DNA of 64,000 nucleotides from an uncultured Clostridia bacterium (GCA_928721565.1 OV788638.1:1484850-1548849); one strand, 5' to 3'. Counted from the stretch's first letter, positions 2,824 through 50,075 are shown. Made by a program: numbers and translations. Notes: generated from the letters alone by a model not told the origin.

Positions 2824-2852
2824 GCACATTTAAGAACCGGTCCCAAATGTGC
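2824..2852. repeat. single copy (A) of the GGGACCGGTTC-core palindromic element
   Basis: GCACATTTAAGAACCGGTCCCAAATGTGC lies 26 bp after the stop of the 2876..4153 gene and ~110 bp upstream of the LPXTG protein gene. On that strand it is followed by a U-rich tract. Confidence 0.85.
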
Positions 2853-2875
2853 GAAAATACAGTCTCTCAATAAGT

Positions 2876-4153
2876 TCAATCTCTTTTAATATTTTTATAA
2901 GTTAAAAATCCAATTATAATAGAAACAACAATAAATACATCAACAGCCATCAATAAGTAGTCTTTTTTATTTTCCCTTTTTTCATTTTTAACTTCATTGT
3001 TATCATTATTCATCGTCTCTCCACTATTATCATTTTCAGAAACTTTCTTATTTACAGAGTAAGCTTCTTCAAGTCTTTTTTTCACTTTATCAACTTCTTG
3101 ATTATAAATTGTTTCCTCTTGTTTATTTCTTTTATAAACATTAATTTCATATATTCTTTGAGTAAATCCATTCGGTGCTGTAACTTTTATTTCAATTTTA
3201 TTATTTCCTTCATTTAGGTTATTATTTCCTAAAATCTCTACTTTTCCCTTTTCATTTTCTGGAATTGCTAAAATATTCAATTGATTTATCTCATTTGCTA
3301 CTTGTGTATTATATCGAGTTATTTGCTCATTAAATTCAGGTGACAAAATTGCATATTCTATAGCAAGATTTTCTAAATTAGTATTTGCCATTTCTAAATT
3401 CTGTGTTTTAGTAACTTTTATTTTATATTCTTGGCGTTTTTCCTGATTTGTTACTACTACATTTATAATATTTAGTCCATCTTTTAAATTCTTATTTCCA
3501 GAAACCTCTATTTTTGCATTCTCATTTTCTGCTATTGTTTGAACTTCAATATCTTTTATTTCTTTTAATTGTTCAGGTAAAGTTAAACTATAATCATATA
3601 TATCTGTTTCAAAATCTGGTACAATTCCTTCCACATTTAATCTTAATGACTTTAATTGAGTACTATTTTGATTTTGTATAGCTCTACCGTTAACACCTTC
3701 AGCAACATCTTGTTCTAGAATTTCAATTTGAAAATTTTCAAAATCAGTTTGCATCAAATTAGTATTTTCATCAAAAAATTCTCCATTCACATCAAAATCA
3801 GCTATCCCTGGTGCAATTGATTTAAATTTTAATTTTTCAAGTTCTCCCTGTTTAGCTTCTGTTCCACCATTTGTATCATACCAAACAATTTTAACTTTAT
3901 TACCAATAACATTTGAATTTTCAGGTCCAGAAACAAATTCTAATTTTGTTGTATCAAAAAATATTTCTATAGAATATACTGATGTGTTTATTCCTTTTAA
4001 ATTAAGACTAACTTCAAATTCATCTCCTATAATCACATTATCCTTATCACTTTGCAAATAAAATGTTGCATTTTCTAATGCTCTACTTTTTAAAGGATAA
4101 CTAAATAGAATTATCATAAAAATTGTTATAACAAAATATATAATCTTTTTCAT
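2876..4153 (-). CDS. membrane-anchored surface protein with an N-terminal cohesin-like domain and two cadherin-like beta-sandwich repeats
   Basis: Signal peptide; two internal repeats (LKSLRLNVEGI...YKIKVTKT / LENLAIEYAILSPEF...YEINVYKR); C-terminal transmembrane segment. Confidence 0.5.
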   Translation of the reverse strand: MKKIIYFVITIFMIILFSYPLKSRALENATFYLQSDKDNVIIGDEFEVSLNLKGINTSVYSIEIFFDTTKLEFVSGPENSNVIGNKVKIVWYDTNGGTEAKQGELEKLKFKSIAPGIADFDVNGEFFDENTNLMQTDFENFQIEILEQDVAEGVNGRAIQNQNSTQLKSLRLNVEGIVPDFETDIYDYSLTLPEQLKEIKDIEVQTIAENENAKIEVSGNKNLKDGLNIINVVVTNQEKRQEYKIKVTKTQNLEMANTNLENLAIEYAILSPEFNEQITRYNTQVANEINQLNILAIPENEKGKVEILGNNNLNEGNNKIEIKVTAPNGFTQRIYEINVYKRNKQEETIYNQEVDKVKKRLEEAYSVNKKVSENDNSGETMNNDNNEVKNEKRENKKDYLLMAVDVFIVVSIIIGFLTYKNIKRD

Positions 4154-4174
4154 TTTATTATCTTTCCCTAAAAA

Positions 4175-6170
4175 TTATTGTTTTATAATCTGCAAACCTA
4201 AAATATGTCTTTGAATTAACAGTAAGTCTACTGATGATGGTTTATTTCCATTTTTTCTTATATTTGCAGATTTTTGATAAACGTCATCTAAAGTTTCAAT
4301 TTCTAATATATGTCTTTGTAAAACTAACAAATCAACACTATTGATTTTTCCATCACCATTGACATCACCATATACTATAATTTGGTATTCTTTTAAAATC
4401 TTTCCATCTTCTTTAACCTGAATTTTATTTCCTGTTCCAATTATTACATTATTTGATAAAACTTCATTTTTTGAATTAACAATCGCTATTTCTAAATTAG
4501 AAATTATATTGTTTTTTATATCTCCAACTGTATTTTGAGTATAATCTATTCCACTCACATCTAAATTATTTAAAATTAATGGAGCAGTAAATTGAACCTC
4601 CGCTTCTTGCATTTTTCTTACTACTGTTATTTTACATTTTGCTTTTATATTTTCATTTTCTTCAGAAATTGCATAAATAATTGTTTCTCCTTCTTTTTGT
4701 GCTGTAATTACTCCATTTTCGTCTATTGTAGCAATTTTTTCATTACCACTTTTAAAATTTATTTTAGTATTATTTGCGTTAGCTGGTTCAATATATGCAT
4801 TAATTTTTAAATTTTCTCCTATTGAAATATATAATTCTTCTTTATCTAAATTAATTCCTGTAACCTTATTATATGCAGGCATTTCTGTTACATAAGTTTG
4901 AAAAATATATCCAACCATACCATTTTCTAACTGAACTCTATCCCATCTTTCTCCATTACTTATACTTTTTGCAATTCTAGTCATTTTTGCATCTCTGCTA
5001 ATCATCGTTATTACTTCATAAGATGTACTTGGACCTGTTCTTACATTTACACTCGTGGCATTACAATAAACTTTAGTATTATCTTCTATATAATTGTTCG
5101 AATTAATATTTGGACTCTCTTTTTGAATATCTGGCATACTATTATAAACAGGAATAATAAATGAAATTGGCAAATCTAGTATCCCACTTTTCTTATATCC
5201 ATTATAGATTGATTTGGATTCCTGATATGGAGCTAATACATTTGTCATATATTGATGTGAAAATAAATTATTTTCTCTATCATCATTTACATCAAATTTT
5301 TGCAAATACACTGTATTTTGTCCAACCTGTATATAACTTGAACCTATAAAAATTCCTCCACCTGAAATCGCTTTTTCTTTATTATTCCATGGAATCAAAT
5401 ATTTATTTTTAGTTGCTTGACTTGCACCTTTTCCATCTTTTGCAAATTGAAGTCCATTTTTTATTGCCCCCATTGGCTCTGTAGAACTTGTAGCACCTAT
5501 GTTATAAAAATTGTATAATCCTTCATATCCAGATACCTTTCCACTTATAGAACTATGTGATAAAAAAGGACCAACTTCTTGCTTTATTCTTGATGCTAAA
5601 TGATATGTGCTTACAGCTGATTTTTGTCCTCCTCTTAATATTAATTCCGAATATGTTTCATTTGTATTTATCATATTTCCTTTATTGTCTAAGTATGATA
5701 CTTTGTTTTGATAAAATTCTGTTCCATATAATATTTTTTCAATACTATTTATGCCATTAGCACTAGAATTATATGATAATGTTTCGAATTGAAAAATTCG
5801 CACTTCATTTAAAAAATTTCTCGGATCCATTGCATATTTCACGGCCAGTTCTGAAGAATCTACCCATCCACTGTCAACTTCTACATTGTACTGCCCAGGT
5901 GTTGTATTTTTCCAGTTATCAGAATATGTCTTTGGTACTAAATTTTTTCCAAATTGACTTTCTTGTTGTATTACATTATTCCAATCTAGATTCGTATACA
6001 GCGCGATAAAACTCCAATTAGGATGATTCTTTTGTATTTCTTTTAAATATGGCTGATAACTACTTGGAAAGCTTTCTATACCGTTCTCTTTTTGTTGATG
6101 CTTCTACTCTGTTACAAAATATCAAACTTATAAATATTCCAATTATGATAGTTATTATCTTTTTTGTCAT
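4175..6170 (-). CDS. secreted cell-wall-hydrolase-like protein with SH3b, Big_2 (Ig-like) and a C-terminal type-I dockerin; frameshift in a T5 run at 6089-6093
   Basis: Dockerin calcium-binding repeats GDVNGDGKINSVDLLVLQRHIL and NGNKPSSVDLLLIQRHILGL. SH3b-like NATSVNVRTGPSTSYEV...GYIF. Big_2-like ITAQKEGETIIYA. The true start is the ATG at 6170 with RBS AGAGGAAAAA and signal peptide MTKKIITIIIGIFISLIFC. The reading frame is restored by deleting one T/A at 6089-6093. Confidence 0.6.
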
Positions 6171-6220
6171 TTTTTCCTCTTTTTTTATTTTTTGATATTT
6201 TCTCCATTTCTTATTGAATA

Positions 6221-6263
6221 TATACAAAAAATACTAGAGCAGAAAATTTTCTACTCTAGTATT
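6221..6263 (-). terminator. intrinsic terminator downstream of mutL (bidirectional hairpin)
   Basis: 10-bp stem AATACTAGAG/CTCTAGTATT followed by a T-run on the minus strand. Confidence 0.55.
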
Positions 6264-6323
6264 TAGAAAAGTATTAAATTTTTATTCATTTTCCTTCTTA
6301 TTATTGTCTTTATCACTTTTTAT

Positions 6324-13152: not shown

Positions 13153-13215
13153 TTGCACCGTTGGGACCGGTTCTCTTTTGTGCATTTGTTCATTTGGGAC
13201 CGGTTCTTATCGGTT
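13153..13215. repeat. tandem pair of the GGGACCGGTTC-core palindromic element (copies B1, B2) in the clpB 5' leader
   Basis: TGCACCGTTGGGACCGGTTCTCTTTTGTGCA and TTGTTCATTTGGGACCGGTTCTTATCGGTTC; core-to-core spacing 33 bp; located between the promoter and the RBS. Confidence 0.85.
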
Positions 13216-13292
13216 CTTTTTCCCATAGTTTTAGACCGAAGACTTGGTGTCCCGGCCTTTTTACTTTTATTATATCTCTTTTGACATTTATT

Positions 13293-13321
13293 ATTATATC
13301 ACTTTATTTTAGCAGTGTCAA
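13293..13321 (-). promoter_or_regulatory. sigma-A-type promoter of clpB (TTGACA-17bp-TATAAT)
   Basis: On the minus strand: TTGACActgctaaaataaagtgaTATAAT, about 150 nt upstream of the clpB start. Confidence 0.6.
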
Positions 13322-13387
13322 TAGTAGAGTGCTAATTTTATAAATATTCCCCTCCAAAAAATTATCTAAAAGGTCGTGCCTTAAAAT

Positions 13388-18153: not shown

Positions 18154-18363
18154 TTTATTTTCTATTAATACTTTTTACTATGCTCTTCTTTATTTCTTCC
18201 TTAACTGTAACTAATACTTACACTACTATCTTCAATAAATTTAAAGAAAATGCATTAGAAAATTATATCAATTATATTAAAAATATCTAGTTGCATTAAA
18301 ATTGCATTATAAAAACCGTAGAATTGTTGATGTTTCAACGTTTCTACGGTTTTTAATATGGTG

Positions 18364-18445
18364 GACAGGGAAGGATTCGAACCTTCGTACTCGTATGAGA
18401 ACAGATTTACAGTCTGCCGCCTTTAGCCACTCGGCCACCTGTCCA
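18364..18445 (-). tRNA. tRNA-Tyr (anticodon GTA)
   Basis: The reverse complement GGACAGGTGGCCGAGTGGCTAAAGGCGGCAGACTGTAAATCTG...GGTTCGAATCCTTCCCTGTCCACC has a long variable arm and a T-loop GGTTCGAATCC. Confidence 0.85.
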
Positions 18446-18475
18446 AATTTTTTATTACTTAAGTAATAAAAAAAT

Positions 18476-18552
18476 GGTGCTCCCACTAGGACTTGAACCT
18501 AGGACCTACCGGTTATGAGCCGGTTGCTCTAACCAACTGAGCTATAGGAGCA
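18476..18552 (-). tRNA. tRNA with CAT anticodon (elongator Met, or Ile2 after lysidine modification)
   Basis: The reverse complement GCTCCTATAGCTCAGTTGGTTAGAGCAACCGGCTCATAACCGGTAGGTCCTAGGTTCAAGTCCTAGTGGGAGCACCA shows a cloverleaf, an encoded CCA end and a 1-72 G-C pair, so it is not an initiator tRNA. Confidence 0.8.
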
Positions 18553-20902: not shown

Positions 20903-21268
20903 ATGTTTACGCGTAGATACCAAAAATGCCGTTGCATGAATAATAATGCATGTTGTAATACTGCTAATAACATGATTGAAGACAAATGTAATGATGTTTG
21001 CCCTTGTAATTATGAAATGAATGTTGCAGACGAATGTGAATGCGGATTTGACGAAGAATATGAAATGAGTGTTTTTCCAGGAAATCCAATGTTAGCTCAA
21101 AGTTATGTTCCTTGGCAATACATGGATAAAACTTTTAAACCTTGTGTAGGCTTAAAAATGGGAACAATCTTTCCAGAATTGGTAAGTCCTTATATGCCTT
21201 GCCAATCTATGAGAGTTAATGAATTCTTAGAAGCAACAAATACTATTGGAGAGGGGTGTAATAAATAA
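20903..21268 (+). CDS. cotJA: spore coat-associated protein CotJA-like
   Basis: RBS AAAGGAGGATTAAT. Cys-rich small protein with a PMLAQSYVPWQ motif, upstream of cotJB and cotJC. Confidence 0.6.
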   Translation: MFTRRYQKCRCMNNNACCNTANNMIEDKCNDVCPCNYEMNVADECECGFDEEYEMSVFPGNPMLAQSYVPWQYMDKTFKPCVGLKMGTIFPELVSPYMPCQSMRVNEFLEATNTIGEGCNK

Positions 21269-21594
21269 TGATAAATGATACAAATAGAAATTGCAATTGT
21301 ATGTGCAATATGAATTCTATGAACATGTCTTCTAATGCTGACTGCAGACCAACTAGAGAAGAAATGTTGCAAAATATCAAATGTTTAAATTTTGCTATAA
21401 TTGAATTAGGTCTTTATTTAGACACTCATCCTGATGATGAAAGAGCTCTTTGCTTACACAGAAAATATTGCAAAGAGTATCGAGAATTAACTGACAAATA
21501 TCAAAAAGTTTATGGGCCTTTAACAATCCAGTTCCCTTGCAATAAATGGAGATGGCTTGAAGAACCATGGCCTTGGGAAGGAGGAATTGTTTAA
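21268..21594 (+). CDS. cotJB: spore coat protein CotJB
   Basis: LNFAIIELGLYLDTHPDDERAL...YGPLT is the CotJB signature. Its start overlaps the cotJA stop. Confidence 0.75.
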   Translation: MINDTNRNCNCMCNMNSMNMSSNADCRPTREEMLQNIKCLNFAIIELGLYLDTHPDDERALCLHRKYCKEYRELTDKYQKVYGPLTIQFPCNKWRWLEEPWPWEGGIV

Positions 21595-22217
21595 TGTGGA
21601 CTTATAATAAAGTTTTAGAATATCCAATTAATATTAAATGCACAGACCCTCGTCTTGCAAAAGTTGTTATTAGTCAATACGGCGGACCTGATGGAGAGCT
21701 TGCCGCTTCTCTTAGATATTTATCTCAAAGATTTGGAATGCCTGATCAAAAAGCTAAAGCTATCTTAAATGATATAGGTACAGAAGAATTAGCCCATCTA
21801 GAAATGGTTGGTACTATTGTCCACCAATTAACTAAAAACGCCTCAATAGAAGAAATTGAAGCAGCTGGTTTAAGTGCATATTATACAGATCATGGGGTAG
21901 ATATATATCCACAATCAGCAGCAGGAGTACCTTTCTCTGCTAATTGCTTAGCATGCAAAGGTGATGCAATAGCTAATTTACAAGAGGATTTAGCAGCAGA
22001 ACAAAAAGCACGTGCAACCTATGAAAAATTAATAGATTTATGTAGAGATAATCCAGATGTCGTAGATCCTCTTCGCTTCTTACGTGAAAGAGAAGTTGTT
22101 CACTTCCAAAGATTTGGTGAAGCTTTAAGAGGTGTTCAGGATAAACTTGCTGAAAAGAAATTTTATATGAATGATGGAAGTTGTTTAGATATGCAACAAA
22201 GTAATTGTGATTGCTAA
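21594..22217 (+). CDS. cotJC: spore coat protein CotJC (manganese catalase family)
   Basis: MWTYNKVLEYPINIK...LRYLSQRFGMPD...EELAHLEMV shows the Mn-catalase/CotJC ferritin-like fold. Its start overlaps the cotJB stop. Confidence 0.8.
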   Translation: MWTYNKVLEYPINIKCTDPRLAKVVISQYGGPDGELAASLRYLSQRFGMPDQKAKAILNDIGTEELAHLEMVGTIVHQLTKNASIEEIEAAGLSAYYTDHGVDIYPQSAAGVPFSANCLACKGDAIANLQEDLAAEQKARATYEKLIDLCRDNPDVVDPLRFLREREVVHFQRFGEALRGVQDKLAEKKFYMNDGSCLDMQQSNCDC

Positions 22218-32953: not shown

Positions 32954-33019
32954 TTGCTCATTTGGGACCGGTTCTCTTTTGAGCAATTGTTCATTTAAGA
33001 ACCGGTCCCAAATGAGCAA
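32954..33019. repeat. pair of GGGACCGGTTC-core palindromic elements (copies C1, C2) in opposite orientation
   Basis: TTGCTCATTTGGGACCGGTTCTCTTTTGAGCAA and TTGTTCATTTAAGAACCGGTCCCAAATGAGCAA, between the AI-2E transporter gene stop and the start of the 32336..32893 gene. Confidence 0.85.
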
Positions 33020-38262: not shown

Positions 38263-38300
38263 AAGTTGTCAAAAGGTTCGTACCGATTGACAACTTTTTT
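38263..38300 (+). terminator. intrinsic terminator of guaA
   Basis: Stem AGTTGTCAA/TTGACAACT followed by T6. Confidence 0.7.
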
Positions 38301-38363
38301 GTTCATTTGGGACCGGTTCTTAAACGAACAATGTTCATTTGGGACCGGTTCTCTTTTGTGCAC
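38298..38363. repeat. tandem pair of GGGACCGGTTC-core palindromic elements (copies D1, D2)
   Basis: TTGTTCATTTGGGACCGGTTCTTAAACGAACAA and TGTTCATTTGGGACCGGTTCTCTTTTGTGCAC. They lie between the convergent 3' ends of guaA and the proline-rich protein gene. Core-to-core spacing 32 bp. Confidence 0.85.
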
Positions 38364-38370
38364 TTTTATT

Positions 38371-38832
38371 TTAATATGCTAATTCCCCATCTTCTAATGA
38401 AGAAAAATATTTAGGTGACTCATATATATCATTTTCTCCTCCTCTTGGTCTTGGAGGTCTTCCTGGTCCAGGTCCCATAGGTGGCCTCATTGGAGGACGA
38501 GGTGGTCTTGGTGGTGGAGGTCTAGGAGGTCTAAATCCTGGAAAACCTGGTCTTCCTAATAATTCTCTTAATAATAATATACGAATTATATCATTTAAAC
38601 CTGTGTTTCTTTGTCTATTATCACAATTTTGGCAATATCTATCTTCTTTATTTTTTTCTATTTTTCCAGTGTTTGTTGTTGTAGTTTTTGAATCTATTTT
38701 TGTAACTTCTGCCTCTCCTCTATCTTGTACCAATGCCCTATCTTCTACTGCAGAATAGATTTCATCTGTTAATCTATCTACTAGTTCTCTTGTAACCTCT
38801 CCTCTATTTTCTGCACATGCTTTTTGCACCAT
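38371..38832 (-). CDS. proline-rich low-complexity protein (possible spore coat/structural protein)
   Basis: C-terminal PGFPGFRPPRPPPPRPPRPPMRPPMGPGPGRPPRPRGG. The likely start is MVQKACAENRG; the ORF-track N-terminus overlaps the upstream gene. Confidence 0.45.
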   Translation of the reverse strand: MVQKACAENRGEVTRELVDRLTDEIYSAVEDRALVQDRGEAEVTKIDSKTTTTNTGKIEKNKEDRYCQNCDNRQRNTGLNDIIRILLLRELLGRPGFPGFRPPRPPPPRPPRPPMRPPMGPGPGRPPRPRGGENDIYESPKYFSSLEDGELAY

Positions 38833-38840
38833 AGGATATA

Positions 38841-39434
38841 CTATCTGGTTGATGACGAAGTAGAATGTTGGTTCCATTCAAAACCAAAATCACTTCTTTT
38901 TATTTTACACATTTCTCCATTTTCTCTATAAAAAACTATTCCTTCTATATAATGATTTCTAAGATACTCTTTTATTCCATCATAATCTCTTGGCACATTG
39001 TCCAATATCCTATTTCCATGTTTTTCTAAAATATCTTCATCTAAATTATATGGATTTCCATTTAAATGCTTTCCTATTAATTCATATGTTCCATCTTCTA
39101 AATTTTCATTTTTTTGTCTCTCAAATGCTTCCAATTGATATTTACTATTTAAATCATCTGGTACGCATAATATCCAATGTGGAAAATGTCCCGTTATTGA
39201 ATCAGCTTTTTCTTGGCAAGGAATTGCTCCCTTAGGTAATTTTCTACCTTTTTTGTAATCATATCTCCTATATATTTTTCCATCTTTTATCAAACAACAT
39301 GTACCATCTATTTTCTCTGTTGCCCAGCCCTCTCCATCTAATACCCATTTGCAGTCTGGTTCTACTTCATTTAAACATTTTGCTATTTTATGGTTTTCGA
39401 ATTGTCTTTTAAAAAGTGTTTTCATTTTCTTCAT
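38841..39434 (-). CDS. RNA ligase family protein (nucleotidyltransferase motif I KxDG)
   Basis: GWATEKIDGTCCLIK matches the KxDG adenylylation motif of ATP-dependent ligases. Its ~200-aa size fits stand-alone bacterial RNA_ligase-domain proteins. Confidence 0.5.
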   Translation of the reverse strand: MKKMKTLFKRQFENHKIAKCLNEVEPDCKWVLDGEGWATEKIDGTCCLIKDGKIYRRYDYKKGRKLPKGAIPCQEKADSITGHFPHWILCVPDDLNSKYQLEAFERQKNENLEDGTYELIGKHLNGNPYNLDEDILEKHGNRILDNVPRDYDGIKEYLRNHYIEGIVFYRENGEMCKIKRSDFGFEWNQHSTSSSTR

Positions 39435-39446
39435 CTAATTCACTTC

Positions 39447-40646
39447 CTATTCTAATAAAAAATCGATTAGATATTTAATCTTAATACCTTCTTCTGATGT
39501 ATTATTATATAATCTGTCCATTGTTATAACTGTTTTTTCATAATTATCTTTTATATTTTTTAGTACTCCAAGTTCACGTTTTTTCACATTGTCATCTAAC
39601 ATTGTATATGTCACTTGATAATATTTTTTATCATTTGGCTTTGTTGCTATAAAATCAACTTCTAAAGAATCATTTTTTCCAACAGTAACATCGTATCCTC
39701 GTCTTATTAATTCAAAATAAACTACGTTTTCTATAATATGTCCAAAATCTGAATCTCTAAATCCTAATGTAACATTTCTTATTCCAGTATCCACAATATA
39801 ATATTTTTCTAATGTTTTTAATATTTCTTTTCCTTTAATATCATATCTTGGAACTTTATATATGATATATGCATTTTCTAACATTTGCAAATAATTTAGA
39901 ACTGTATTATGTGTTATTTTTGTGCCTTGGCTTGTTAAAAAATCTGCAATTTTCTTTGAAGAAATTAAACTTCCAATATTACTCATTAAAAATCTCAAAA
40001 TTTTTTCAAGTAATATCGCATCTAATAACTTATTTCTTTCTACTACATCTTTCATAAATACTGTATTATATATACCTTTTATTGCATTTTCATATAGGTT
40101 TTCTTCATTTTTTATAGTTATAATTCCTGGCATACCACCGAATTTTATATATTCAATGAATTTATCTTCTAATGTTTTTTTATCTTCTAATACTGTAAAA
40201 TCTAAATATTCCTTGAAAGATAATGGTAATACTTTTATTTCAACATATCTTCCTGATAAATATGTTGACAACTCTGATGATAACAAATATGCATTTGAAC
40301 CTGTTATATAGATATCACTCTTAAAATCTACTATCATAGCATTTACAGCTTTTTCCCATTCTTCAATTCTTTGAACTTCATCTAGCAATATATAATTTGT
40401 CTTTGTTCTTATGATTCTTTTGCTTATTTTATTATACATATCTTTATAGTTAACAATGTCATCATATTCAAAAGATTCAAAATTCATATATATTACATTT
40501 GCATTTTTGTCTTCCTCTAATATTTTTTCCATAAAAAGTTTTAATAAACTCGATTTTCCACATCTTCTAATTCCTGTTATAACTTTTATAAATTCAGTAT
40601 CTTTATATGCTAATAATTTGTTCATATATATGTCTCTATTTACCAT
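39447..40646 (-). CDS. AAA+ ATPase with DUF4143 C-terminal domain
   Basis: Walker A GIRRCGKSSLL and Walker B ILLDEVQ; architecture typical of the AAA_14/DUF4143 family. Confidence 0.65.
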   Translation of the reverse strand: MVNRDIYMNKLLAYKDTEFIKVITGIRRCGKSSLLKLFMEKILEEDKNANVIYMNFESFEYDDIVNYKDMYNKISKRIIRTKTNYILLDEVQRIEEWEKAVNAMIVDFKSDIYITGSNAYLLSSELSTYLSGRYVEIKVLPLSFKEYLDFTVLEDKKTLEDKFIEYIKFGGMPGIITIKNEENLYENAIKGIYNTVFMKDVVERNKLLDAILLEKILRFLMSNIGSLISSKKIADFLTSQGTKITHNTVLNYLQMLENAYIIYKVPRYDIKGKEILKTLEKYYIVDTGIRNVTLGFRDSDFGHIIENVVYFELIRRGYDVTVGKNDSLEVDFIATKPNDKKYYQVTYTMLDDNVKKRELGVLKNIKDNYEKTVITMDRLYNNTSEEGIKIKYLIDFLLE

Positions 40647-40754
40647 TTTCTCTCATTCCTTTCTTTTTTATTATAAATATAGTATACAACACTGTTTATG
40701 TTTTGTCAAGTTTTGTTAATGTGTTAACAAAACTTTTATTTTTTATGTTTTTTG

Positions 40755-42296
40755 TTAGTGCTGCTGCTTTTTAAAATTAAAATACAAATCAACTTGTTTG
40801 TCTTGATGAATTTCAATTCTATTAATAATTACTTTCATAATCTCTGGAGTTGGTTTTTTTAATTCCAAAAATTCTCGTACAACATTTTTTATTTTTTCAG
40901 TCTTATTTTGTTTTGTTTCTTCTTTTTGTTTATTGATTTCTATATATTCGCTCTCTTTCTTTTTTATTTTTTCTTGCAATTTTTTTAATACTCTTTCATA
41001 CATTTTTTCACTTATTTTATTATTTAATTTATCTAAATACATTTTGTCAATATTATTATTTACCAATTTAATTTCATTTTCTAATTTTTGAAGTATTTTT
41101 TCATAATTGTATTTAATCATTCTGTTTTTTATGTTTAACTCAAGTCTTTCATTATCAATGTCTTTAAATAAACTTCTTATGTAATTAAGAATCGATTCTT
41201 CTAGGTTATTATAGCTAAATCCATGAGAAGTACAAAATCCTAATTTTGAGCTTCTTCGATAGTTATTACATACCATGTAATAACGTCCCTTTTTTTCTCC
41301 TCTTACGCCTATCTTATGTTTACATTCATAGCAAAATAGTAAGCCATCCAACAAAAATGTATTTTTCTTTTCATTTCTATTATAGCTCTGAACTATTATC
41401 ATTTTTTGTACAACCTCAAATACTTTTTTATCTATTATTGGTTCATGTGTATTTTCTACAGTTACCCATTTTTCTTCTGGATTTGGTCTAATTTTTCTAT
41501 TTTTGTAACTTATTCTACTTCTTTTATTCTGTACTGTTGTACCTATATAAACTTTATTCTTTAATATGTTTTTTACTGTTTTATTTTCCCAAAATGTTTC
41601 TTTATTGTATCTCGACTTATTGGCCGTTGGAATATCTCTATTATTTAAATAATCTCTTATTTCTCCAACTTGTTTTCCATTAGATGCCATATTAAAGATG
41701 TTTCTTACAATTTGAGCTTCTGGTTCATAAATTATTAGTTTATTTTTATCATTTATATCTTTTGTGTATCCAAGTGGCGTTTTTCCTCCTACCCATTTTC
41801 CTTGTTTTTGCATTGTGTGCATTGCTGTCCTAATTTTCTTTGATAAGTCTTTCGAATACATATCATTTAATATTGACTTAAATGGAGCAATATCATTATT
41901 ACCATTTGATGCTTCAAAAGTATCTATTCCATCTGTTACTGAAACATATCTTACATTATTTTCTGGAAACCATTTTTCTATATATTCTCCTGTTTCTATA
42001 TAGTCACGTCCTAGACGAGATAAATCTTTTGTTACAACCATATTAATTTTCCCGTTTTCAATATCTCTTACCATTCTTTGAAAATCCGGTCTATTAAAAT
42101 TTGTCCCAGTAAAACCCTGATCAATATATGTATCTATTAATTGGTACTTACCTCCTAATTTTTGCACATATTCTGTTAGTAATGTTCTTTGATTTTTTAT
42201 ACTTTCACTTTCATTATAACCTCTGTCTACATCTTCTTTTGATAACCTTATATAAATTGCTACTTTGTAAATTGTTTTCTCTATCTGTTCAAGCAT
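40755..42296 (-). mobile_element. large serine recombinase (resolvase/invertase catalytic domain + recombinase domain + zinc ribbon)
   Basis: N-terminus VAIYIRLSKEDVDRGYNESESIKNQR (catalytic Ser); central recombinase domain; CxxC...C region (CYECKH...CNNYRR); C-terminal coiled coil. 513 aa. Confidence 0.8.
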
Positions 42297-42596
42297 TTTT
42301 CCTCCCTTATAGGCTTAAGATATTAATTATTAAATGTTTTATTAATTCTTCTAATTCTTCACCTTCTTTATCGAAGTACATATTAATTTTGAAAGTTTCA
42401 CTCATATTAACTCACTCTCCCTATACTATATATACATCCGTTTTCTTATAAAAATTCTCTTTCATAATGAATTTGTTTATTTTTAAATATGTTCACATCT
42501 GCTTATAAATAGTTTAAGGGTAGTTATGTGACAGCTCTCGCTATCGCACATCTACCCTAGTTAATAAAATGAGTTTCAAATATTTTCTTTATTCTA

Positions 42597-43430
42597 TCAT
42601 ATACTTTGCCAATAATAATATAAAATATTTTTGTCAACATCATAAACACCTATTTCACAACCTGTTGCTTCTTCTTTTGTAAAATTATGTTTTTTGTTTT
42701 CATCACTTGTTCTACATACTAATTCATAATGATAGTATCCATTTTTTATCTCAAGCACTTCTTTGTTATATTCAAAATCATCTAATATACTATCATCAAG
42801 TCTATCTTTACTCCATTTTGAATTAACATCTAGACTTTTTATTATATCCTGTCCACTTTCTTTCGAAAATTCATATACATAATAATCTAATCCATCATAT
42901 TGAATTCCTTCCCTTACACTATAAATTTCTCTTTTGATATAGTTTTCAGTTTTCACCCCTAAAATATTACTATAATTATTATGAGATCCATAAAGATAAC
43001 TTTTTAAATAATATAATTTTTCATTTTTTAAATCAAATATAGCATAAATTCCTTTATTATTATAATAGTATAAATCTTCTCTATCTATCGCTATCATATC
43101 ATTATCAACTATTTCATAAAATCTTATCATCTCATATTCGTAAAATTTTTCTTTGCTCCAATAACTACTTTCCTCTAACTTTCTTCTAAACTCTTCTTTT
43201 TCTCCAAACATATTTAATTTATATACCGTATACTTCTGTAAAGGATCATCTTTATATACAATATAGTAGTTTATATTATACGAACTTAACTCTAAGTTTA
43301 ATTTTTTATATTCTTCATCCACATTAAAAGTTACTTTTGATATAAATATATAAATAATCAAAAATATTGTAATTCCTACTAATGGTATAAATGCAAATTC
43401 CTTCAAATTTTTTCTCTTCAATTTGAACAC
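42597..43430 (-). CDS. hypothetical membrane-anchored protein
   Basis: 277 aa with an N-terminal TM helix (FAFIPLVGITIFLIIYIFI) and a Tyr/Asn-rich ectodomain. It is translationally coupled to the upstream gene by a 12-bp gap. Confidence 0.4.
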   Translation of the reverse strand: MFKLKRKNLKEFAFIPLVGITIFLIIYIFISKVTFNVDEEYKKLNLELSSYNINYYIVYKDDPLQKYTVYKLNMFGEKEEFRRKLEESSYWSKEKFYEYEMIRFYEIVDNDMIAIDREDLYYYNNKGIYAIFDLKNEKLYYLKSYLYGSHNNYSNILGVKTENYIKREIYSVREGIQYDGLDYYVYEFSKESGQDIIKSLDVNSKWSKDRLDDSILDDFEYNKEVLEIKNGYYHYELVCRTSDENKKHNFTKEEATGCEIGVYDVDKNILYYYWQSI

Positions 43431-43442
43431 CGTCCTATAACA

Positions 43443-44519
43443 TTAAAATTCTCCTTCTTTTGTTTTAAATTTTATTTTAACATCATATGTTTTTATAACT
43501 CCATATTCACTTGAGGCTACTCCTAAATTATTTAATGTAGTAGATATAATATCCTTTAATTTTCCATCTTCTTCATCTGCATATTCCCTTAAATCTTTGA
43601 AATCAGTAAAATCATAAGTATCTTTAATTTCAATTTCTAAATTCCACTTATTATTTTCATCTTTTATTGCTTTAACTAATAATGTTGCATCATGGAGAGC
43701 ATAAAGTAAATCTGCATCATCAAATCTAATCAATGTGTCCTCCCTTGGAGATTTTTCGTCAATAATAAATTCATTTTTCTCTTTTCCGTATTTTTCTATT
43801 AATTGTTTTAACTTTTTCTTGAATATTGGACTTTCAAGTAATGTTTTTTTTATTTTTTCATCCTCTATCACTAAATCACTTGGTTCTTTTCCAAATAAAG
43901 TCAATGAATTTGTCAATAATTTAGCAGAAAGTGGTTTATTAGTAAATAACCCTCCTATAACAACAATTTGCCAAAATTCATACTGCATTGAATAAAATAT
44001 AGCATATGATATTGGATTGATTTTTTTAGTTACATCAAATATAAAACTCAAGCTTTTTATAAAGCTTTCTGCAACCTTTTCATCTACTTCTTGCCAATTT
44101 ATATTTTGAGAATCTTTTATAAGTTTCTGAAACTTTTGGTAATAATTAAATAACTTATATACATCATTTAATGAAAAAGAAATTGTCTCTGACATATCTC
44201 TTCTTGAGAAAACTGATATATTATCTATATATCTTGAAATTCTTTCCACGATTTCATTTAAAGCTTCATAGTCCATCTTATTCAAATAATTTAATTCTAT
44301 ATATTTTTGTGTTAAATCATATTTCTTATTTTTGCTTAAGAAATATTTGTGATTTTTCCAAGCAATTCTATTACATAAATATGATTCTTTATTCCATACA
44401 AATCTTGGTGGTTTACGTATTCCTAATTCTTCATAAATATTATCAAGGCATCCTCTTCCAAACATTGCATATTTATAGTTGTATGTTTTATTACATAACA
44501 AGCATCTCTTTTCTTCCAT
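43443..44519 (-). CDS. hypothetical protein with an N-terminal CxxC...C zinc-ribbon-like motif
   Basis: 358 aa starting MEEKRCLLCNKTYNYKYAMFGRGC. Confidence 0.4.
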   Translation of the reverse strand: MEEKRCLLCNKTYNYKYAMFGRGCLDNIYEELGIRKPPRFVWNKESYLCNRIAWKNHKYFLSKNKKYDLTQKYIELNYLNKMDYEALNEIVERISRYIDNISVFSRRDMSETISFSLNDVYKLFNYYQKFQKLIKDSQNINWQEVDEKVAESFIKSLSFIFDVTKKINPISYAIFYSMQYEFWQIVVIGGLFTNKPLSAKLLTNSLTLFGKEPSDLVIEDEKIKKTLLESPIFKKKLKQLIEKYGKEKNEFIIDEKSPREDTLIRFDDADLLYALHDATLLVKAIKDENNKWNLEIEIKDTYDFTDFKDLREYADEEDGKLKDIISTTLNNLGVASSEYGVIKTYDVKIKFKTKEGEF

Positions 44520-44805
44520 AATATATCAGTCCCCTTTTTTACTTTATTTTCACTAATATAATAAGGATCATATTAGTTATCATATTTATATCATAACATC
44601 TAATTTTTTTCCATCATCTGCAGTTAACGAGCGTTTCTCAGTAACTAAATTTCATTTAATTCATTATCTTAATAAATAACTTGTCTCTTTTCCAAACGAA
44701 GATAATAATTACCAAATTTTATTTATTTTATATCAAACATTTGTTTTTGTCAATAGTCAAAAAAAATAAATTTCAAACTCTGAAATTTAACTATTTATAT
44801 TAAAT

Positions 44806-45194: not shown

Positions 45195-45268
45195 GCAAAA
45201 ATGCACAAAACAGAACCGGTCCCAAATGAACATTGTTCATTTAAGAACCGGTCCTAAATGTACCAAAT
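45195..45268. repeat. tandem pair of GGGACCGGTTC-core palindromic elements (copies E1, E2) in the opposite orientation to pair D; E2 is slightly degenerate (GGACC with T)
   Basis: GTGCGCAAAAATGCACAAAACAGAACCGGTCCCAAATGAACA and TTGTTCATTTAAGAACCGGTCCTAAATGTACC, between the murD stop and the Q/N/M-rich gene. Confidence 0.8.
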
Positions 45269-45273: not shown

Positions 45274-46680
45274 TTAAAATTTCATAACCATATCCTTAAA
45301 TTGGTCTCCTCTGTCATACATATCTTTAAACATATCAAAACTTGTGCTAGCAGGTGAAAATAAAACAATTTGGCCTGGCTTAGCGACTCTTTTAGCCAAT
45401 TGCATACTTTGTTCAAATGTCTCACACATATGAATATCCATTTTCTTATGTTGATGTTCTAATTCATTCTTAACAGCTTCATAAATTTTATTTGCTGTTT
45501 GACCAATTAAAATTAAGCATTCTACATTATCTACTATTGGCTTTCCTATTGGTGTATAATCTAAATTCTTGTCAGCCCCACCAGCAATTAATACAATTTC
45601 TCTATCTTTAAATGCATTTAATGCTGAAATTCCTCTAGTTGGACTTGTACTTGCAGAATCATTATACCACTCTACTCCATCAACTGTACGTACATATTCT
45701 TGTCTGTGATGTACTCCAACAAATTGTTTTATTGTTTCTGCTGCATCATCTGTATCTACAAGCCCCTTTGTTAAGGCTAATACTGTACATGCATTTTGGA
45801 AATTATGCATTCCTTTTAGCTTCATATCTTTAGTATCTAATATATGTCTTCTTATTCCTTCATTACATTCTTTGATTATTCCATCTTCGTCAACAATAAA
45901 TCCATTCTCAAGCTTTTGTTTACTACTAAACATTATTACTTTTCCATTTGCTTCATCTTTGCATGAATCTGTAATTTCATTGTCAGCATTTAAAACTAAT
46001 ATACCATTTTCATTTTGATATTTAAAAATATTTTTCTTTGCATCTATATATTCTTGGTAATCTTTATGTACATTCAAATGATTTGGTGTAATGTTTGTTA
46101 TTGCTGCAATATCTGGACTAATTTGCATATTCATTAATTGAAAACTGCTTAATTCTAATACAATTATATCTTCTGGTTTTATTTCATTTAATTTTGTGAA
46201 TAGTGGTATTCCTATATTTCCACCTACATGAACTGTATATCCTGCATTTTTTAGAACTTCAGCAGTCAATGTTGTTGTTGTTGTTTTTCCGTCACTACCT
46301 GTAATTCCTATAATTTTGCAAGGCGCTAATTTCATTAATTGTTCAATTTCAGTTGTAACTATTGCTCCTTTGTTTGCTTCTTCAACTAATTCTGGCTTAG
46401 TTGGTAAACAACTTGGTGATCTAAATATTAAATCAAATCCTTTTAAATTTTCTAGATTTCCAGCTCCTAAATATTTTTTAAATCCATATGATTTAATTTT
46501 ACTTATAATTTCTTTATTTAGTTTTTCCTCTTCTCTGTCATCAAATACTGATACATCTGCATGCTTACTATAAAGATAGTCTATCAATGGTATATTACTA
46601 ACACCAAGCCCTATTACTGCTATTTTTTGATTTGGTAACATTTCTTCAAATTTTTCTAATTTTTTATTTTTAAATTCCAA
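45274..46680 (-). CDS. murD: UDP-N-acetylmuramoyl-L-alanine--D-glutamate ligase
   Basis: N-terminal Rossmann fold IAVIGLGVSN and Mur ligase central P-loop GITGSDGKTTTT. 468 aa. Confidence 0.88.
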   Translation of the reverse strand: MEFKNKKLEKFEEMLPNQKIAVIGLGVSNIPLIDYLYSKHADVSVFDDREEEKLNKEIISKIKSYGFKKYLGAGNLENLKGFDLIFRSPSCLPTKPELVEEANKGAIVTTEIEQLMKLAPCKIIGITGSDGKTTTTTLTAEVLKNAGYTVHVGGNIGIPLFTKLNEIKPEDIIVLELSSFQLMNMQISPDIAAITNITPNHLNVHKDYQEYIDAKKNIFKYQNENGILVLNADNEITDSCKDEANGKVIMFSSKQKLENGFIVDEDGIIKECNEGIRRHILDTKDMKLKGMHNFQNACTVLALTKGLVDTDDAAETIKQFVGVHHRQEYVRTVDGVEWYNDSASTSPTRGISALNAFKDREIVLIAGGADKNLDYTPIGKPIVDNVECLILIGQTANKIYEAVKNELEHQHKKMDIHMCETFEQSMQLAKRVAKPGQIVLFSPASTSFDMFKDMYDRGDQFKDMVMKF

Positions 46681-47350
46681 TTTTAATGGCCTCCTTCATG
46701 TTTTCTAATACCAATTTTTCTGATTCTTTTGCACTTTTGCAATTTGTTACATCTATGATTTTGGTTTGTGGATATATCTTATAATATCCTGATTTTTCTT
46801 GAAGCTCATCCCTAATTTGTATCATTTCTTTAATTTGCTCTTTTGGTATTTCTTTATTATATTGCATATATTTTCTATTTGTTCTTTCTTCTATTGAAGC
46901 ATCAATAAAAAAGTGATATGTAACATCAGGATACATTTTTACTATATCTCTTGAAGATAAAATCACATTGTATTTTTCTCTGTATTTATCTATTAATTCT
47001 TTTCCGAATTGATATAATCTTGTATTATCTGCTATATTGCTAACTTTTGAAACTGCCATAGATGATTTTTGGGATTGTAAATCTTTTTCATCTACTTTTT
47101 TTTCATTCATATATATTACTGTTTCTTTATTTTCTAATTTGATTTCTATTCCAAGCTTTTTCATAATATCAAATGCATCTAAGTCCTGTGTATTTTCAAT
47201 TTTTGTTTGCATCATTCCATATACTATTGCTCTGTATATCTCTCCACCATGTAATATTATTGAATTTTCTATGTCTTTTAATAATTCTCTGCATATTGAT
47301 GTTTTCCCAGCTCCAACTGTTCCTTCTATTCCTATTACTATATTTTCCAT
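46670..47350 (-). CDS. cmk: cytidylate kinase (divergent) / CMP-kinase-like
   Basis: IGIEGTVGAGKTS, GGEIYRAIVYG and FIDASIEERTNRKY match Cmk conserved blocks. The likely start is MENIVIG; the ORF-track N-terminal extension is probably spurious. Confidence 0.5.
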   Translation of the reverse strand: MENIVIGIEGTVGAGKTSICRELLKDIENSIILHGGEIYRAIVYGMMQTKIENTQDLDAFDIMKKLGIEIKLENKETVIYMNEKKVDEKDLQSQKSSMAVSKVSNIADNTRLYQFGKELIDKYREKYNVILSSRDIVKMYPDVTYHFFIDASIEERTNRKYMQYNKEIPKEQIKEMIQIRDELQEKSGYYKIYPQTKIIDVTNCKSAKESEKLVLENMKEAIKIGI

Positions 47351-47442
47351 TTTATTTTTCCTCTTTATTGACAAATCTTTTGATTTCCTATATAATATGA
47401 ATAGGAAATAAGTAACCACAAACGTGGTTGCCTTGTATATGT

Positions 47443-47486
47443 AAAAAAACACATCAGTCAGGCAAGTTACAGATGTGTTTTTTATT
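47443..47486. terminator. bidirectional intrinsic terminator
   Basis: Stem AAACACATC/GATGTGTTT with T-runs on both strands, 3' of the small hydrophobic peptide gene. Confidence 0.55.
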
Positions 47487-47488
47487 GT

Positions 47489-47590
47489 CTATTTGCTTAA
47501 TATTATAATTAAGGCAAATACTATAATAGTTTCGACAACTAATGCAAATAAAAGTAAGTATATTATTTCTAATAAAACAGCTTCTATCAT
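47489..47590 (-). CDS. small hydrophobic peptide (33 aa), not in the ORF track
   Basis: Strong RBS GGAGGTGGTGCT then ATG; product MIEAVLLEIIYLLLFALVVETIIVFALIIILSK; followed by a terminator. Confidence 0.45.
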   Translation of the reverse strand: MIEAVLLEIIYLLLFALVVETIIVFALIIILSK

Positions 47591-47884
47591 AGCACCACCT
47601 CCATTCTCACAACATAAAGTCATGGATTAAAAGTGGCAACCACATCTGCAATTCTCATTTCCTACTATATAACTATACTATAAATTTAGACAAATAACAA
47701 GTGAAATATTGAAATTCTTAAATTTCGTATTAAGCCGAGGAATATAATGCAAAGCTTATATTTAAAGTATTTCGTATAAAAATGCAACTAAAAGCATTAA
47801 CTAGTAACAAAAATAATTTCACTGTATACTTTTTAACTTTATGGGTAAAATATTTGAGAAAGATTAGAATGGAGGTGTTCTTCT

Positions 47885-47977
47885 ATGTCAGATAAAAAAA
47901 GTAAACAAAACAAAAATAACAACAGAAATAACGAAAATAACAATAATAACAACAACCAAAGTAACAACAATAGATAG
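47885..47977 (+). CDS. small Asn-rich peptide (30 aa), not in the ORF track
   Basis: Consensus RBS GGAGGTG 8 nt upstream of the ATG; product MSDKKSKQNKNNNRNNENNNNNNNQSNNNR; followed by a terminator at 47996-48025. Confidence 0.45.
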   Translation: MSDKKSKQNKNNNRNNENNNNNNNQSNNNR

Positions 47978-47995
47978 TTTAATTTTATAAAAAAT

Positions 47996-48025
47996 AAAGC
48001 AGTTGATTAACTGCTTTTATTTTAT
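47996..48025. terminator. bidirectional intrinsic terminator (serves the small peptide gene and clpX)
   Basis: Stem AAAGCAGTT/AACTGCTTT with U-runs on both strands. Confidence 0.6.
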
Positions 48026-48041
48026 ACAAAATCATATTTTT

Positions 48042-49343
48042 TTATGCTGTTTCTTTTTGCTCAACAGCAATTCTTTCATTTCTGACTTTTTTTACTTTAT
48101 TGGGATTTTCTATAATTCTTGGTTCTTGATTGTCTACAACAGTCTCCCTTGTAACAATACACTGTTCAATCTTTTCATTAGATGGAATATCAAACATGAT
48201 GTCTCTCATAATTTCTTCTATTATAGAACGTAATCCTCTAGCACCAGTTTTTCTCTCAATTGCTTTATCTACAATAGCTTCTAGTGCTTCATGCTCAAAT
48301 ATTAATTCTACATCATCCATTTGCAATAACTTTTTATATTGTTTTACTAATGCATTTTTTGGTTCTGTAGTGATCTTAATTAAAGCTTCTCTATCTAATT
48401 CTCTTAGTGTTGCAATTATTGGCAATCTTCCTATAAATTCTGGAATCATACCAAATTTTAATAAATCTTGTGGTAATATTTGCTCAAATACTTTGTATCT
48501 ATCTATATCTTTTTTGCTTTCAATATCTGCTCCAAATCCCATTGATTTTTTACCAATTCTGTCTTTTATAATATTTTCAAGGCCTTCAAAAGCTCCACCA
48601 CATATAAATAGTATATTTGATGTATTTATCTGTAATAACTCTTGTTGTGGATGTTTTCTTCCCCCTTGTGGTGGAACAGATGCAATTGTTCCTTCCACAA
48701 TTTTCAATAGAGCTTGTTGTACACCTTCTCCACTAACATCTCTTGTTATAGATGGATTTTCAGATTTTCTTGTTATCTTATCAATCTCATCTATATAGAT
48801 TATTCCTTTTTCTGCTTTTTCTATATCACCATCAGCAGCTTGAATCAATTTTAAGAGAATATTTTCAACATCTTCTCCTACATATCCAGCCTCTGTAAGT
48901 GTTGTAGCATCAGCAATAGCAAAAGGAACATTTAATATTTTTGCAAGAGTACTTGCAAGTAAAGTTTTTCCACAACCTGTTGGTCCTAATAATAAAATAT
49001 TGCTTTTTTGTATTTCTACATCATCATCTTCTCTTTCATGTGCTATTCTTTTATAATGGTTATATACAGCAACTGACAATGTTTTCTTTGCCTCATCTTG
49101 ACCAATTACATATTGATCCAATATTTCTTTTATTTCTCTTGGGCTTGGTATTTTATCTAATCCAGCTAAAGTGTAAGCATCATCATCTTCATCATAAAAT
49201 TCACTTTCGATTATTTCATTGCATAGCCCTATACATTCATTACAAATATATACACCTGGACCTGCAACTATCTTTTTTACGCTTTCTTGTGTTTTACCAC
49301 AAAATGAACATTTTACACCTTTAGGTGTATCATTTTTTGCCAT
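48042..49343 (-). CDS. clpX: ATP-dependent Clp protease ATP-binding subunit ClpX
   Basis: C4 zinc finger CSFCGK...CNEC; Walker A GPTGCGKT; GYVG pore loop; IGF-type loop MGFGA. 433 aa, directly downstream of clpP. Confidence 0.93.
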
Positions 49344-49385
49344 CTATATTTCTCCTTTTCTTATTTTATTAAATTCTAAAAAGAA

Positions 49386-49997
49386 CTATATTCTTTTGTC
49401 CATAATTCCATCAATAAGACCATACTCTAAAGCTTCTTGAGCTGTCATATAATGGTCTCTTTCAGTATCTCTTTCGATTGTTTCTATAGATTGACCTGTT
49501 TTTTCACTTAATAATTTATTTAATTTTTCTCTTGTTCTTATCATATGATCTGCATGAATTTTGATTTCTGTAGCTTGACCAGAAATACCTCCACCTTGAC
49601 CACCAATTAATGGTTGATGTATCAATATTTCTGAATTTGGTGTAGCATATCTTTTTCCTTTTTCACCATTTGCTAGTAACACTGCACCAAAACTTGCAGC
49701 TAATCCAACACATATTGTTGAAACTGGGCATTTAATATAATTCATTGTATCTACAATACCCATTCCATCTGTAATAGATCCACCAGGTGAATTTATATAT
49801 AAAAATATTTCTTTATCTGGATCTTCTGACTCTAAGAATAATAATTGTGCAATTATTAAACTTGCTGATGTTGGATTTACATCTTCACCTAAAAATATTA
49901 TTCTATCTTTTAATAATCTTGAGAATATATCATATGATCTTTCTCCTTTACTTGTTTGTTCAACTACATATGGTACCAAACTGTCTTTTTCTAACAT
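49386..49997 (-). CDS. clpP: ATP-dependent Clp protease proteolytic subunit ClpP
   Basis: Catalytic triad context GLAASFGA (Ser), HQPL (His). ~200 aa. RBS AAAGGAGGAAAAAGT. Confidence 0.93.
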
Positions 49998-50012
49998 ACT
50001 TTTTCCTCCTTT

Positions 50013-50075
50013 GGTTCATTTGGGACCGGTTCTTAAATGAACAATGTTCATTTGGGACCGGTTCTTAAATGAACA
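50013..50075. repeat. tandem pair of near-perfect GGGACCGGTTC-core palindromic elements (copies F1, F2) in the clpP 5' leader
   Basis: TGGTTCATTTGGGACCGGTTCTTAAATGAACA and ATGTTCATTTGGGACCGGTTCTTAAATGAACA; 32-bp spacing; they end 15 bp from the clpP start codon, adjacent to the RBS. Confidence 0.9.

Follow-up and report, generated by a model that had tools for sequence, protein, structure and literature searches.

REP-type intergenic hairpins of a probable REP–RAYT system in an uncultured lineage of human-gut Clostridia

Repetitive extragenic palindromes (REPs) and the RAYTs (REP-associated tyrosine transposases) that accompany them form systems described almost entirely from Proteobacteria; Group 1 RAYTs occur in Clostridia too, with only weak repeat association (PMC5581495, PMC6006769). 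Here we analysed a family of short intergenic hairpin elements in 64,000 nucleotides of an uncultured Clostridia bacterium (GCA_928721565.1, OV788638.1:1484850-1548849), a stretch that we call the window and number from its first letter. The elements share the core GGGACCGGTTC and are very likely REP-type repeats, selfish or domesticated, of a REP–RAYT system, or REPtron, of an uncultured human-gut Clostridia lineage with 26–33% GC. We read them in this way because inverted copies of the element stand on both sides of a RAYT-like gene and because the core changes with the RAYT lineage. A preliminary description of the window had listed, as one of its options, a repeat resembling REPs or bacterial interspersed mosaic elements (BIMEs) with a RAYT encoded elsewhere. 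That option is supported by a Y1_Tnp gene with inverted element flanks, found in related genomes.

Throughout, forward (F) denotes the strand reading GGGACCGGTTC and reverse (R) its complement, relative to gene direction where stated. The window holds ten exact copies of the core and one with a single mismatch, 11 in all, at six intergenic loci, compared with 0.03 matches expected from dinucleotide shuffles of the window. The sole substitution is AGGACCGGTTC at 45245, and the core, at first described as invariant, is so in 10 of the 11 copies. Scanning with a 15-mer and tolerating three mismatches gave one additional weak match only. An nhmmer profile made from 58 element copies returned the same 11 copies at E ≤ 4e-7 and its next match at E = 14, which leaves no decayed copies in the window. 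Exact, mismatch and profile scans thus bear out the count of copies and loci given in the preliminary description. All 11 copies are intergenic, with no genic copies in the window; the 895-aa open reading frame (ORF) that overlaps 13163/13196 is an over-extended clpB, the true start of which is 13136, behind a GGAGG ribosome-binding site. Copies occur roughly once per 6 kb, seven on the plus strand and four on the minus strand, in a window of 26–32% GC with genes mainly on the minus strand. Four pairs are direct and one is inverted (F then R), as had been reported; their core-to-core spacings are 33, 35, 32, 32 and 32 bp, and not uniformly the 32–33 bp first given.

To find a partner gene, we searched related loci for ORFs with elements on both sides. 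An ORF of 262–265 aa is bracketed by elements in three independent metagenome contigs (L134, L154 and L183). The 262-aa protein scored 38–41 bits against Pfam Y1_Tnp (cut-off 23), and its best NCBIfam match was the REP-associated tyrosine transposase model (REP_Tyr_transpos, E 1e-13 to 1e-17). The RAYT-like family has at least 583 members, and both the HUH motif N59-H60-x-H62 and R118-Y119-(I/V)-H121-R-N-P are invariant or nearly so across homologues. An AlphaFold model of the RAYT (predicted local distance difference test, pLDDT, 73 overall and 80–90 in the N-terminal domain) had as its top Foldseek match 4er8_A, Escherichia coli TnpA-REP bound to its REP hairpin, followed by IS608, ISDra2 and IS200 TnpA; the structures matched in the IS200/IS605 group are 2a6o, 2vjv and 2xm3. 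A phmmer search of the ORFs from these loci with an approximate IS200 TnpA query found nothing significant and would have missed the true RAYT, which reached only E = 0.56. The C-terminal region of about 120 aa (residues about 140–262) has no Pfam or PDB sequence match and is conserved, with K234, I236, Q243, R246 and R249 invariant in alignments A2 and A3. It is helical in the model, with pLDDT >90 at residues 200–260, and may be an extra DNA-binding domain.

The layout of elements around the gene is regular: nine of ten distinct RAYT loci carry one to three forward copies upstream and one to three reverse copies downstream. The flanking core is GGGACCGGTTC in L134, L154, L183 and L250-253. 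Other RAYT lineages are flanked by GGGACCGGGTA (P0029, P0032), GGGGTCGGTTCC (P0038) or GGGGACGGGATTG (P0090), and each variant core is also dispersed as a repeat over the contigs it comes from, L255 having 16 copies in 8 kb, for example. CAKOYU, a close relative of the window, carries a RAYT locus, L114 being 99.7% identical to L253 downstream of the RAYT. Two further repeats were seen alongside the main family. UMGS1925 has GGGGACGGTTCC, with 47 copies in the fetched loci and its own GC-rich hairpins (L020:4528-4660, L037:116-388 and 3526-3677, L074:991-1147); its copies bracket GGGACCGGTTC units as nested palindromes of ~80 nt, and this family suggests a second REP–RAYT system in that genome. 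A variant, GGGACCGTTTC, has 14 copies in L058 and L101.

The unit spans ~31 bp and reads TG-NN-C-NN-TT, then GGGACCGGTTC, then T-N-NNN-G-NN-CA. The GGGACCGGTTC strand is predicted to fold into a 13-bp stem with two G.T wobbles under a CCGGT pentaloop (CCGGU in RNA), where a tetraloop apex had been proposed, and DNA folding parameters give the same hairpin shapes as RNA. Among 61 copies from the window and ten related genomes, oriented on the core, the two arms of a copy formed a mean of 5.62 of nine possible Watson–Crick pairs, compared with 4.06 ± 0.14 when arms were randomly re-paired. An ungapped alignment of the 13-pair hairpin (A1) had double changes at 9 of 13 stem pairs, with 95 double-change cells compared with 47.6 ± 5.5 in shuffles (0 of 500 shuffles reached 95), and 75.9% of its cells were paired whereas sliding the register gave no more than 53.6%. 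Conservation in A1 covers the TTTG of the foot, C10/G32 and the apex of 11 nt; the apex (columns 15–26) is invariant, and G.T stands at 16:26 in all 58 of the 58 copies. The stem pairs 6:36 (T-A), 7:35 (G-C) and 10:32 (C-G) are near-fixed, whereas 8:34, 9:33, 11:31 and 12:30 each take four or more Watson–Crick types. Recurrent arm subtypes are TGTTCA/TGAACA, TGCACA/TGTGCA, TGCACCG/CGGTGCA, TGTCCCA/TGGGACA, TGGCACA/TGTGCCA and GACCCA/TGGGTC.

Arms therefore covary beyond chance, by random re-pairing as by shuffling of A1, and to this extent the preliminary description was right. Its statement that arms always stay complementary was too strong: about 7 of the 11 window copies have 7–9 of 9 Watson–Crick pairs, and four (13196, 38341, 45213 and, less so, 13163) have chimeric arms of mixed subtype. 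It had also taken the covariation as proof of selection on the hairpin, a reasonable reading but not an exclusive one, because gene conversion or hairpin-templated repair could also preserve complementarity, and exchange of patches between copies is seen.

We scanned one genome per species with the 14-mer TTGGGACCGGTTCT. It was multi-copy in about ten uncultured human-gut Clostridia species known from metagenome-assembled genomes (MAGs), including CAKOYU, UMGS1925 and UMGS1576, as expected had the family not arisen by duplication within the window, and gave single chance matches in high-GC genomes. CAKOYU is the closest GTDB relative of the window, and its loci L001 and L112 have 86–96% nucleotide identity to the window over syntenic stretches. 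A paired-core search of metagenomes recovered 120 further loci (788 kb, 291 copies), nearly all of 25–33% GC and many from human-gut assemblies. Across ~1 Mb of related loci, 92% of 333 copies fell outside ORFs of at least 90 aa, as delimited by a crude ORF caller. A search of phages gave a single viral match, a chance one in a contig of 65% GC. Overall, ~60% of copies are reverse relative to gene direction, with no strict bias to a replication or transcription strand. An unbiased sample of 29 clusters comprised 12 singles, 10 direct tandems and 7 F-then-R doublets or triplets containing one, and no cluster in the R-then-F order.

Occupancy turns over between species and strains. Between infB and rbfA the window lacks the element, L112 carries two reverse copies and L089 carries two forward ones; the window has there (56347-56616) 270 nt of unrelated sequence, not present in relatives, that resembles a small ORF, possibly with a frameshift. 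The rimP–nusA spacer is occupied in L087 only, and 3' of mutL there are three units in L001 compared with an ordinary terminator-like hairpin in the window. Arrays of close strains differ by whole units, with one, two or three copies. The tig–clpP pair is fixed in nine metagenome contigs of the window's species. Its unit at 50013..50043 reads TTTAA in the window and AGAGA in nine contigs (among L120-L129) with nearly identical flanks, a 5-nt patch that, from the sequences, looks like conversion from another copy. In L125 and L128, ClpP is identical to that of the window and the synteny is different (a clpX of 441 aa, followed by recG). The 5.8 kb of L125 are free of elements, the sequence upstream of clpP included; L128 combines the window-type, element-bearing upstream region with the other synteny and may be a recombinant or a chimeric assembly.

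Coordinates of the window copies are given in Table 1. The copy at 2823..2853 has an orthologue in L001, the arm of the 13154..13184 unit ends directly at the clpB Shine–Dalgarno sequence, and the direct tandem 3' of murD begins 19 nt past the murD stop.

Table 1. Copies of the repeat in the window, with the start of the core in each.
Feature	Coordinates	Strand	Core start	Arms and context
REP-type element, single	2823..2853	-	2834	Arms CGCACATTT-GGGACCGGTTC-TTAAATGTGCA; F relative to transcription; 32 nt past the stop of a cadherin-like surface protein gene, 109 nt before a cohesin-domain gene
REP-type element, clpB-proximal tandem unit	13154..13184	+	13163	In the clpB 5' untranslated region; R relative to clpB
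REP-type element, distal clpB tandem unit	13187..13217	+	13196	Right arm is the TTATCGGTTC variant, not complementary to the left
REP-type element, inverted pair, first half	32955..32985	+	32964	Between an AI-2E/YtvI-like transporter gene and a DUF1980 gene
REP-type element, inverted pair, second half	32988..33018	-	32999	Core starts 35 bp apart; only inverted pair in the window
REP-type element, direct tandem, first unit	38300..38330	+	38309	Between convergent guaA (+) and a proline-rich ORF (-)
REP-type element, guaA 3' tandem, second unit	38332..38362	+	38341	Arms TGTTCA / TGTGCA, mixed subtype
REP-type element, murD 3' tandem, second unit in transcription direction	45202..45232	-	45213	F relative to transcription; T-rich tract follows
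REP-type element, murD 3' tandem, first unit	45234..45264	-	45245	Only copy with a substituted core (AGGACCGGTTC)
REP-type element, clpP-proximal unit of tig–clpP tandem	50013..50043	+	50022	R relative to clpP; abuts the clpP Shine–Dalgarno sequence
REP-type element, distal unit of tig–clpP tandem	50045..50075	+	50054	Perfect arms TGTTCATTT / AAATGAACA

Other features of the window were recorded in passing. The single element lies between the cohesin-domain and cadherin-like genes, whose 5' ends and upstream sequences (2657-2729 and 4085-4157) are 73% identical, so that the signal-peptide regions of these two surface-protein genes are paralogous. Directly past guaA and its element pair is a block of 24–25% GC (38371-44520) with the proline-rich ORF, an AAA-ATPase-like ORF, several orphan ORFs and a large serine recombinase (40755-42296; Resolvase, Recombinase and Zn_ribbon_recom domains); this block is probably an element that integrated 3' of guaA. 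A tRNA-Tyr/tRNA-Met pair lies at 18359-18551, and a cotJA-cotJB-cotJC-like spore-coat operon on the plus strand coincides with a local reversal of GC skew (20903-22217). Together with the ytvI-like gene and the yunB/sipL-linked genes of relatives, this operon indicates that the organism is a spore-former. Between 54100 and 64000, infB (56620-59580), nusA, mutS and truB fragments, all essential genes, are split over several frames, and an alignment of L112 InfB to the window runs through frames -1, -2 and -3; the broken frames are most likely assembly indel errors and not pseudogenes.

How might a RAYT produce such a family? By analogy with E. coli TnpA-REP and IS608 TnpA, the Y1 enzyme would recognise the folded hairpin on single-stranded DNA. 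It would read sequence at the invariant apex and foot bases and shape along the variable stem, and in this way the compensatory stem variation would be explained. By nicking and rejoining hairpin DNA, it would let units spread and arrays grow in ~32-bp steps. Gene conversion or hairpin-templated repair would homogenise copies, and may preserve arm complementarity with no need for every copy to be under selection. Selection by the host would filter the surviving sites, leaving copies in spacers only, with F arrays past stops and R arrays at Shine–Dalgarno sequences, and could in this way account for the restriction to spacers and the orientation-dependent placement.

Several observations weigh against the REP–RAYT reading. 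The window contains no RAYT gene, and the RAYT loci recovered are those of congeners. NCBIfam REP-transposase scores of 50–63 bits lie below the equivalog cut-off of 80, and PDB sequence searches with the RAYT and its profile found no matches, so that the link to the TnpA-REP structure comes from fold comparison. Core and RAYT are not in perfect step: the L183 RAYT is 54% identical and has the same core, whereas a 67% homologue has another. Unlike E. coli and Pseudomonas REPs, the elements have no 5' GTAG in A1, their invariant block being the apex and three stem pairs while four pairs vary; GTAG defines the Group 2/3 subtypes rather than the whole REP class. The REPIN model, in which REPs occur as inverted doublets, fits poorly, as such doublets are a minority here; since most clusters are singles or direct tandems, there is probably some replicative unit besides the doublet. 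Biases of orientation and position point to host-level selection also shaping the family. Lastly, no clean pair of filled and empty sites, from which the point of cleavage or insertion could be read, was recovered, so that mobilisation by the RAYT is an inference.

A more specific model can be proposed tentatively, as a possibility rather than a probability. The Clostridial RAYT clade would read its REP through the hairpin apex and not through a 5' GTAG; the apex would be a lineage-specific 'address' of 11–13 nt that has switched several times (GGTTC, GGGTA, GGGATTG), the stem would contribute shape only, and the C-terminal 120 aa would add specificity. The host would have co-opted F arrays as 3' end or terminator hairpins and R arrays as spacers abutting Shine–Dalgarno sequences. 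If this is true, apex-reading would be a new recognition mode of HUH-Y1 enzymes, within a Firmicutes REP–RAYT partnership that has a host function.

The placement of arrays also bears on an alternative in which the elements are primarily RNA devices (terminators or 3' stabilisers, or 5' protective hairpins), repeated by convergence or secondarily and without a transposase. Forward-forward arrays stand a median of 11 nt past the upstream stop codon, and reverse-reverse arrays fill short spacers, with median distances of 30 nt to the stop and 32 nt to the following start, and run up to the Shine–Dalgarno sequence. Predicted RNA folds are strong in the forward orientation (-12.6 to -20.7 kcal/mol, with a forward tandem foldable as one long hairpin of -34.8 kcal/mol) and weaker in reverse (-7.2 to -16.9 kcal/mol); forward hairpins are often followed by T-rich tracts, and the plain terminator-like hairpin of the window stands at the very mutL 3' site where L001 has its array. 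Terminators would not, however, be expected to keep an 11-nt apex unchanged over hundreds of independent sites and at least ten species, nor does a device of this kind predict both orientations within operons, repeats that flank a RAYT-like gene, or a core that changes with the RAYT lineage. We regard this alternative as very unlikely; any effects at the RNA level more probably filter the family, or are exaptations, than account for its origin.

Could the Y1 gene instead be a mobile insertion sequence (IS), either IS200/IS605-like or a TIRYT, and the repeats its remnants, akin to miniature inverted-repeat transposable elements, with no domesticated RAYT involved? Inverted arrays do bracket the gene, the two flanks in L257 are nearly exact reverse complements of each other, and the fold matches extend to IS608, ISDra2 and IS200 TnpA. 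Yet homologues at 100, 99, 92, 67 and 62% identity all lie between yunB and a nuoE-like hydrogenase gene (sipL–yunB–RAYT–hydrogenase), and since the same slot is kept over 62–100% identity, the gene appears vertically inherited and not transposed; two further homologues sit between a VWA gene and mutL. No second gene copy was seen in ~1 Mb of element-rich sequence, and no tnpB, a frequent companion of IS200/IS605 transposases, neighbours the RAYT loci. The ends of IS200/IS605 elements are same-strand hairpins, not inverted arrays, and the NCBIfam REP-transposase model scored far above the IS200 model (6e-5 or no match against the 262-aa protein). A mobile IS is thus very unlikely.

A third explanation, that the elements are sites on duplex DNA, kept for chromosome structure and bound by a protein of the nucleoid, of topology or of segregation (gyrase, IHF, or a Noc- or ParB-like protein), draws on the near-palindromic core (GGACCGGTTC compared with GAACCGGTCC) in AT-rich flanks, on a 32-bp spacing of about three helical turns and on the binding of gyrase and IHF by E. 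coli BIMEs. The asymmetry of the invariant core (G.T on one strand) and the covarying arms indicate a folded single strand rather than a duplex bound by a dimer; spacer restriction and fast turnover between species are unexpected for essential structural sites, and the RAYT association would be left unexplained. We consider this highly improbable, and a nucleoid or topology role, another option of the preliminary description, could only be a secondary use.

Least credible, to the point that we give it almost no weight, is an operator or 5' leader RNA of a stress regulon (CtsR/HrcA-like) over clpB, clpP and other genes. Two window pairs do immediately precede the ribosome-binding sites of clpB and clpP, a copy stands upstream of htpG in L023, and GGTCCCAAA loosely resembles the CtsR heptad GGTCAAA. 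The neighbours in the window and in 24 related loci are nevertheless diverse, most being housekeeping genes with no relation to one another: clpB, clpP, htpG, rbfA, nusA, V-ATPase subunits, acc genes, tyrS, ldh, Fe-hydrogenase, surface proteins, the AI-2E transporter and DUF1980. Copies also lie between convergent genes (3' of guaA in the window and 3' of clpB in L048), in both orientations and inside operons; orthologous spacers of sister species hold the element in one orientation, in the other or not at all, and L125, from a species whose ClpP is identical, has none upstream of clpP. Moreover, clpB has its own signals. A perfect sigma-70-type promoter (TTGACA-17-TATAAT with a TG extension) lies at 13293-13345 on the minus strand, overlapped by a CIRCE-like inverted repeat, TTAGCACTC-N9-CACTGCTAA, ~150 nt upstream of clpB; because both stand upstream of the elements, these lie within the clpB 5' untranslated region, and the repeat suggests, on its sequence, that HrcA may control clpB in this organism. 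An Rfam 15 scan of the window matched two tRNAs only, and no structured-RNA family matched the element. The preliminary description had named a regulon operator or RNA leader as an option; diverse neighbours, both orientations, convergent sites and variable occupancy contradict it, and we reject a stress-regulon operator. A DNA uptake sequence (DUS/USS), whose motif is frequent within genes too and whose inverted pairs make up the stem, does not fit the lack of genic copies in the window or a motif that sits in the loop between covarying, unrelated arms.

Returning to the REP–RAYT reading, the closest described counterparts are the REPs and BIMEs of E. coli. Like these, the Clostridial elements are short, imperfect extragenic palindromes within the usual REP length of about 20–40 bp, present about once per 6 kb and in arrays, in operon spacers and at 3' ends; unlike BIMEs, their arrays are mostly direct 32-bp tandems and not alternating orientations with linker motifs. 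The enzyme likewise resembles E. coli TnpA-REP (the REPtron; PDB 4ER8) in being a chromosomal HUH-Y1 gene, apparently single and vertically inherited at one locus, with inverted flanking copies, and in an N-terminal domain whose fold best matches 4er8_A. It differs in its conserved C-terminal extension of ~120 aa without a Pfam match, and in a host that is a member of the Firmicutes with 28% GC. As with the REPINs and Group 2/3 RAYTs of Pseudomonas and enterobacteria (Bertels and Rainey; PMC3116915, PMC5581495), a repeat population is cognate to one RAYT, inverted doublets exist, RAYT synteny is conserved and repeat sequences are lineage-specific; unlike in REPINs, stem sequences are heterogeneous within one genome.

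Likenesses to other systems are more partial. HUH-Y1 chemistry and the recognition of subterminal hairpins on single strands, here predicted, are shared with IS200/IS605 elements and their miniature derivatives (PATEs), but the Clostridial Y1 gene is syntenic and apparently neither multi-copy nor mobile, and inverted arrays stand on its two sides in place of left-end and right-end hairpins on the same strand. The pneumococcal BOX, RUP and SPRITE repeats are also small, structured and intergenic in low-GC Gram-positives, where they are often co-transcribed with flanking genes; they are ~100–200 bp long, modular or IS-derived and without a RAYT, in contrast to a Clostridial unit of 31 bp with a Y1 partner. 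Integron attC sites offer a parallel in a folded single-strand hairpin, here again predicted, whose stem sequence varies while its structure and short boxes are kept. Those sites, however, are bound by IntI, stand in cassette arrays, measure 57–141 bp and have conserved ends, whereas the Clostridial element has a conserved apex, and neither integrase nor cassettes are present here.

A full-text literature search for the core on either strand returned unrelated primer sequences only and no paper with the core as a repeat. REP–RAYT is a known kind of system, and the finding reveals no new kind of biology; a dense REP population tied to a syntenic RAYT in uncultured gut Clostridia is a new instance of it. 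It explains conspicuous intergenic hairpins in gut MAGs for which annotation as riboswitches, operators or terminators would be an easy mistake. The elements are useful as a strain-typing marker, and they warn of assembly breaks in these genomes. Set beside the known REP–RAYT systems, the natural switches of repeat core between RAYT lineages provide a comparative system for how Y1 enzymes read hairpins.

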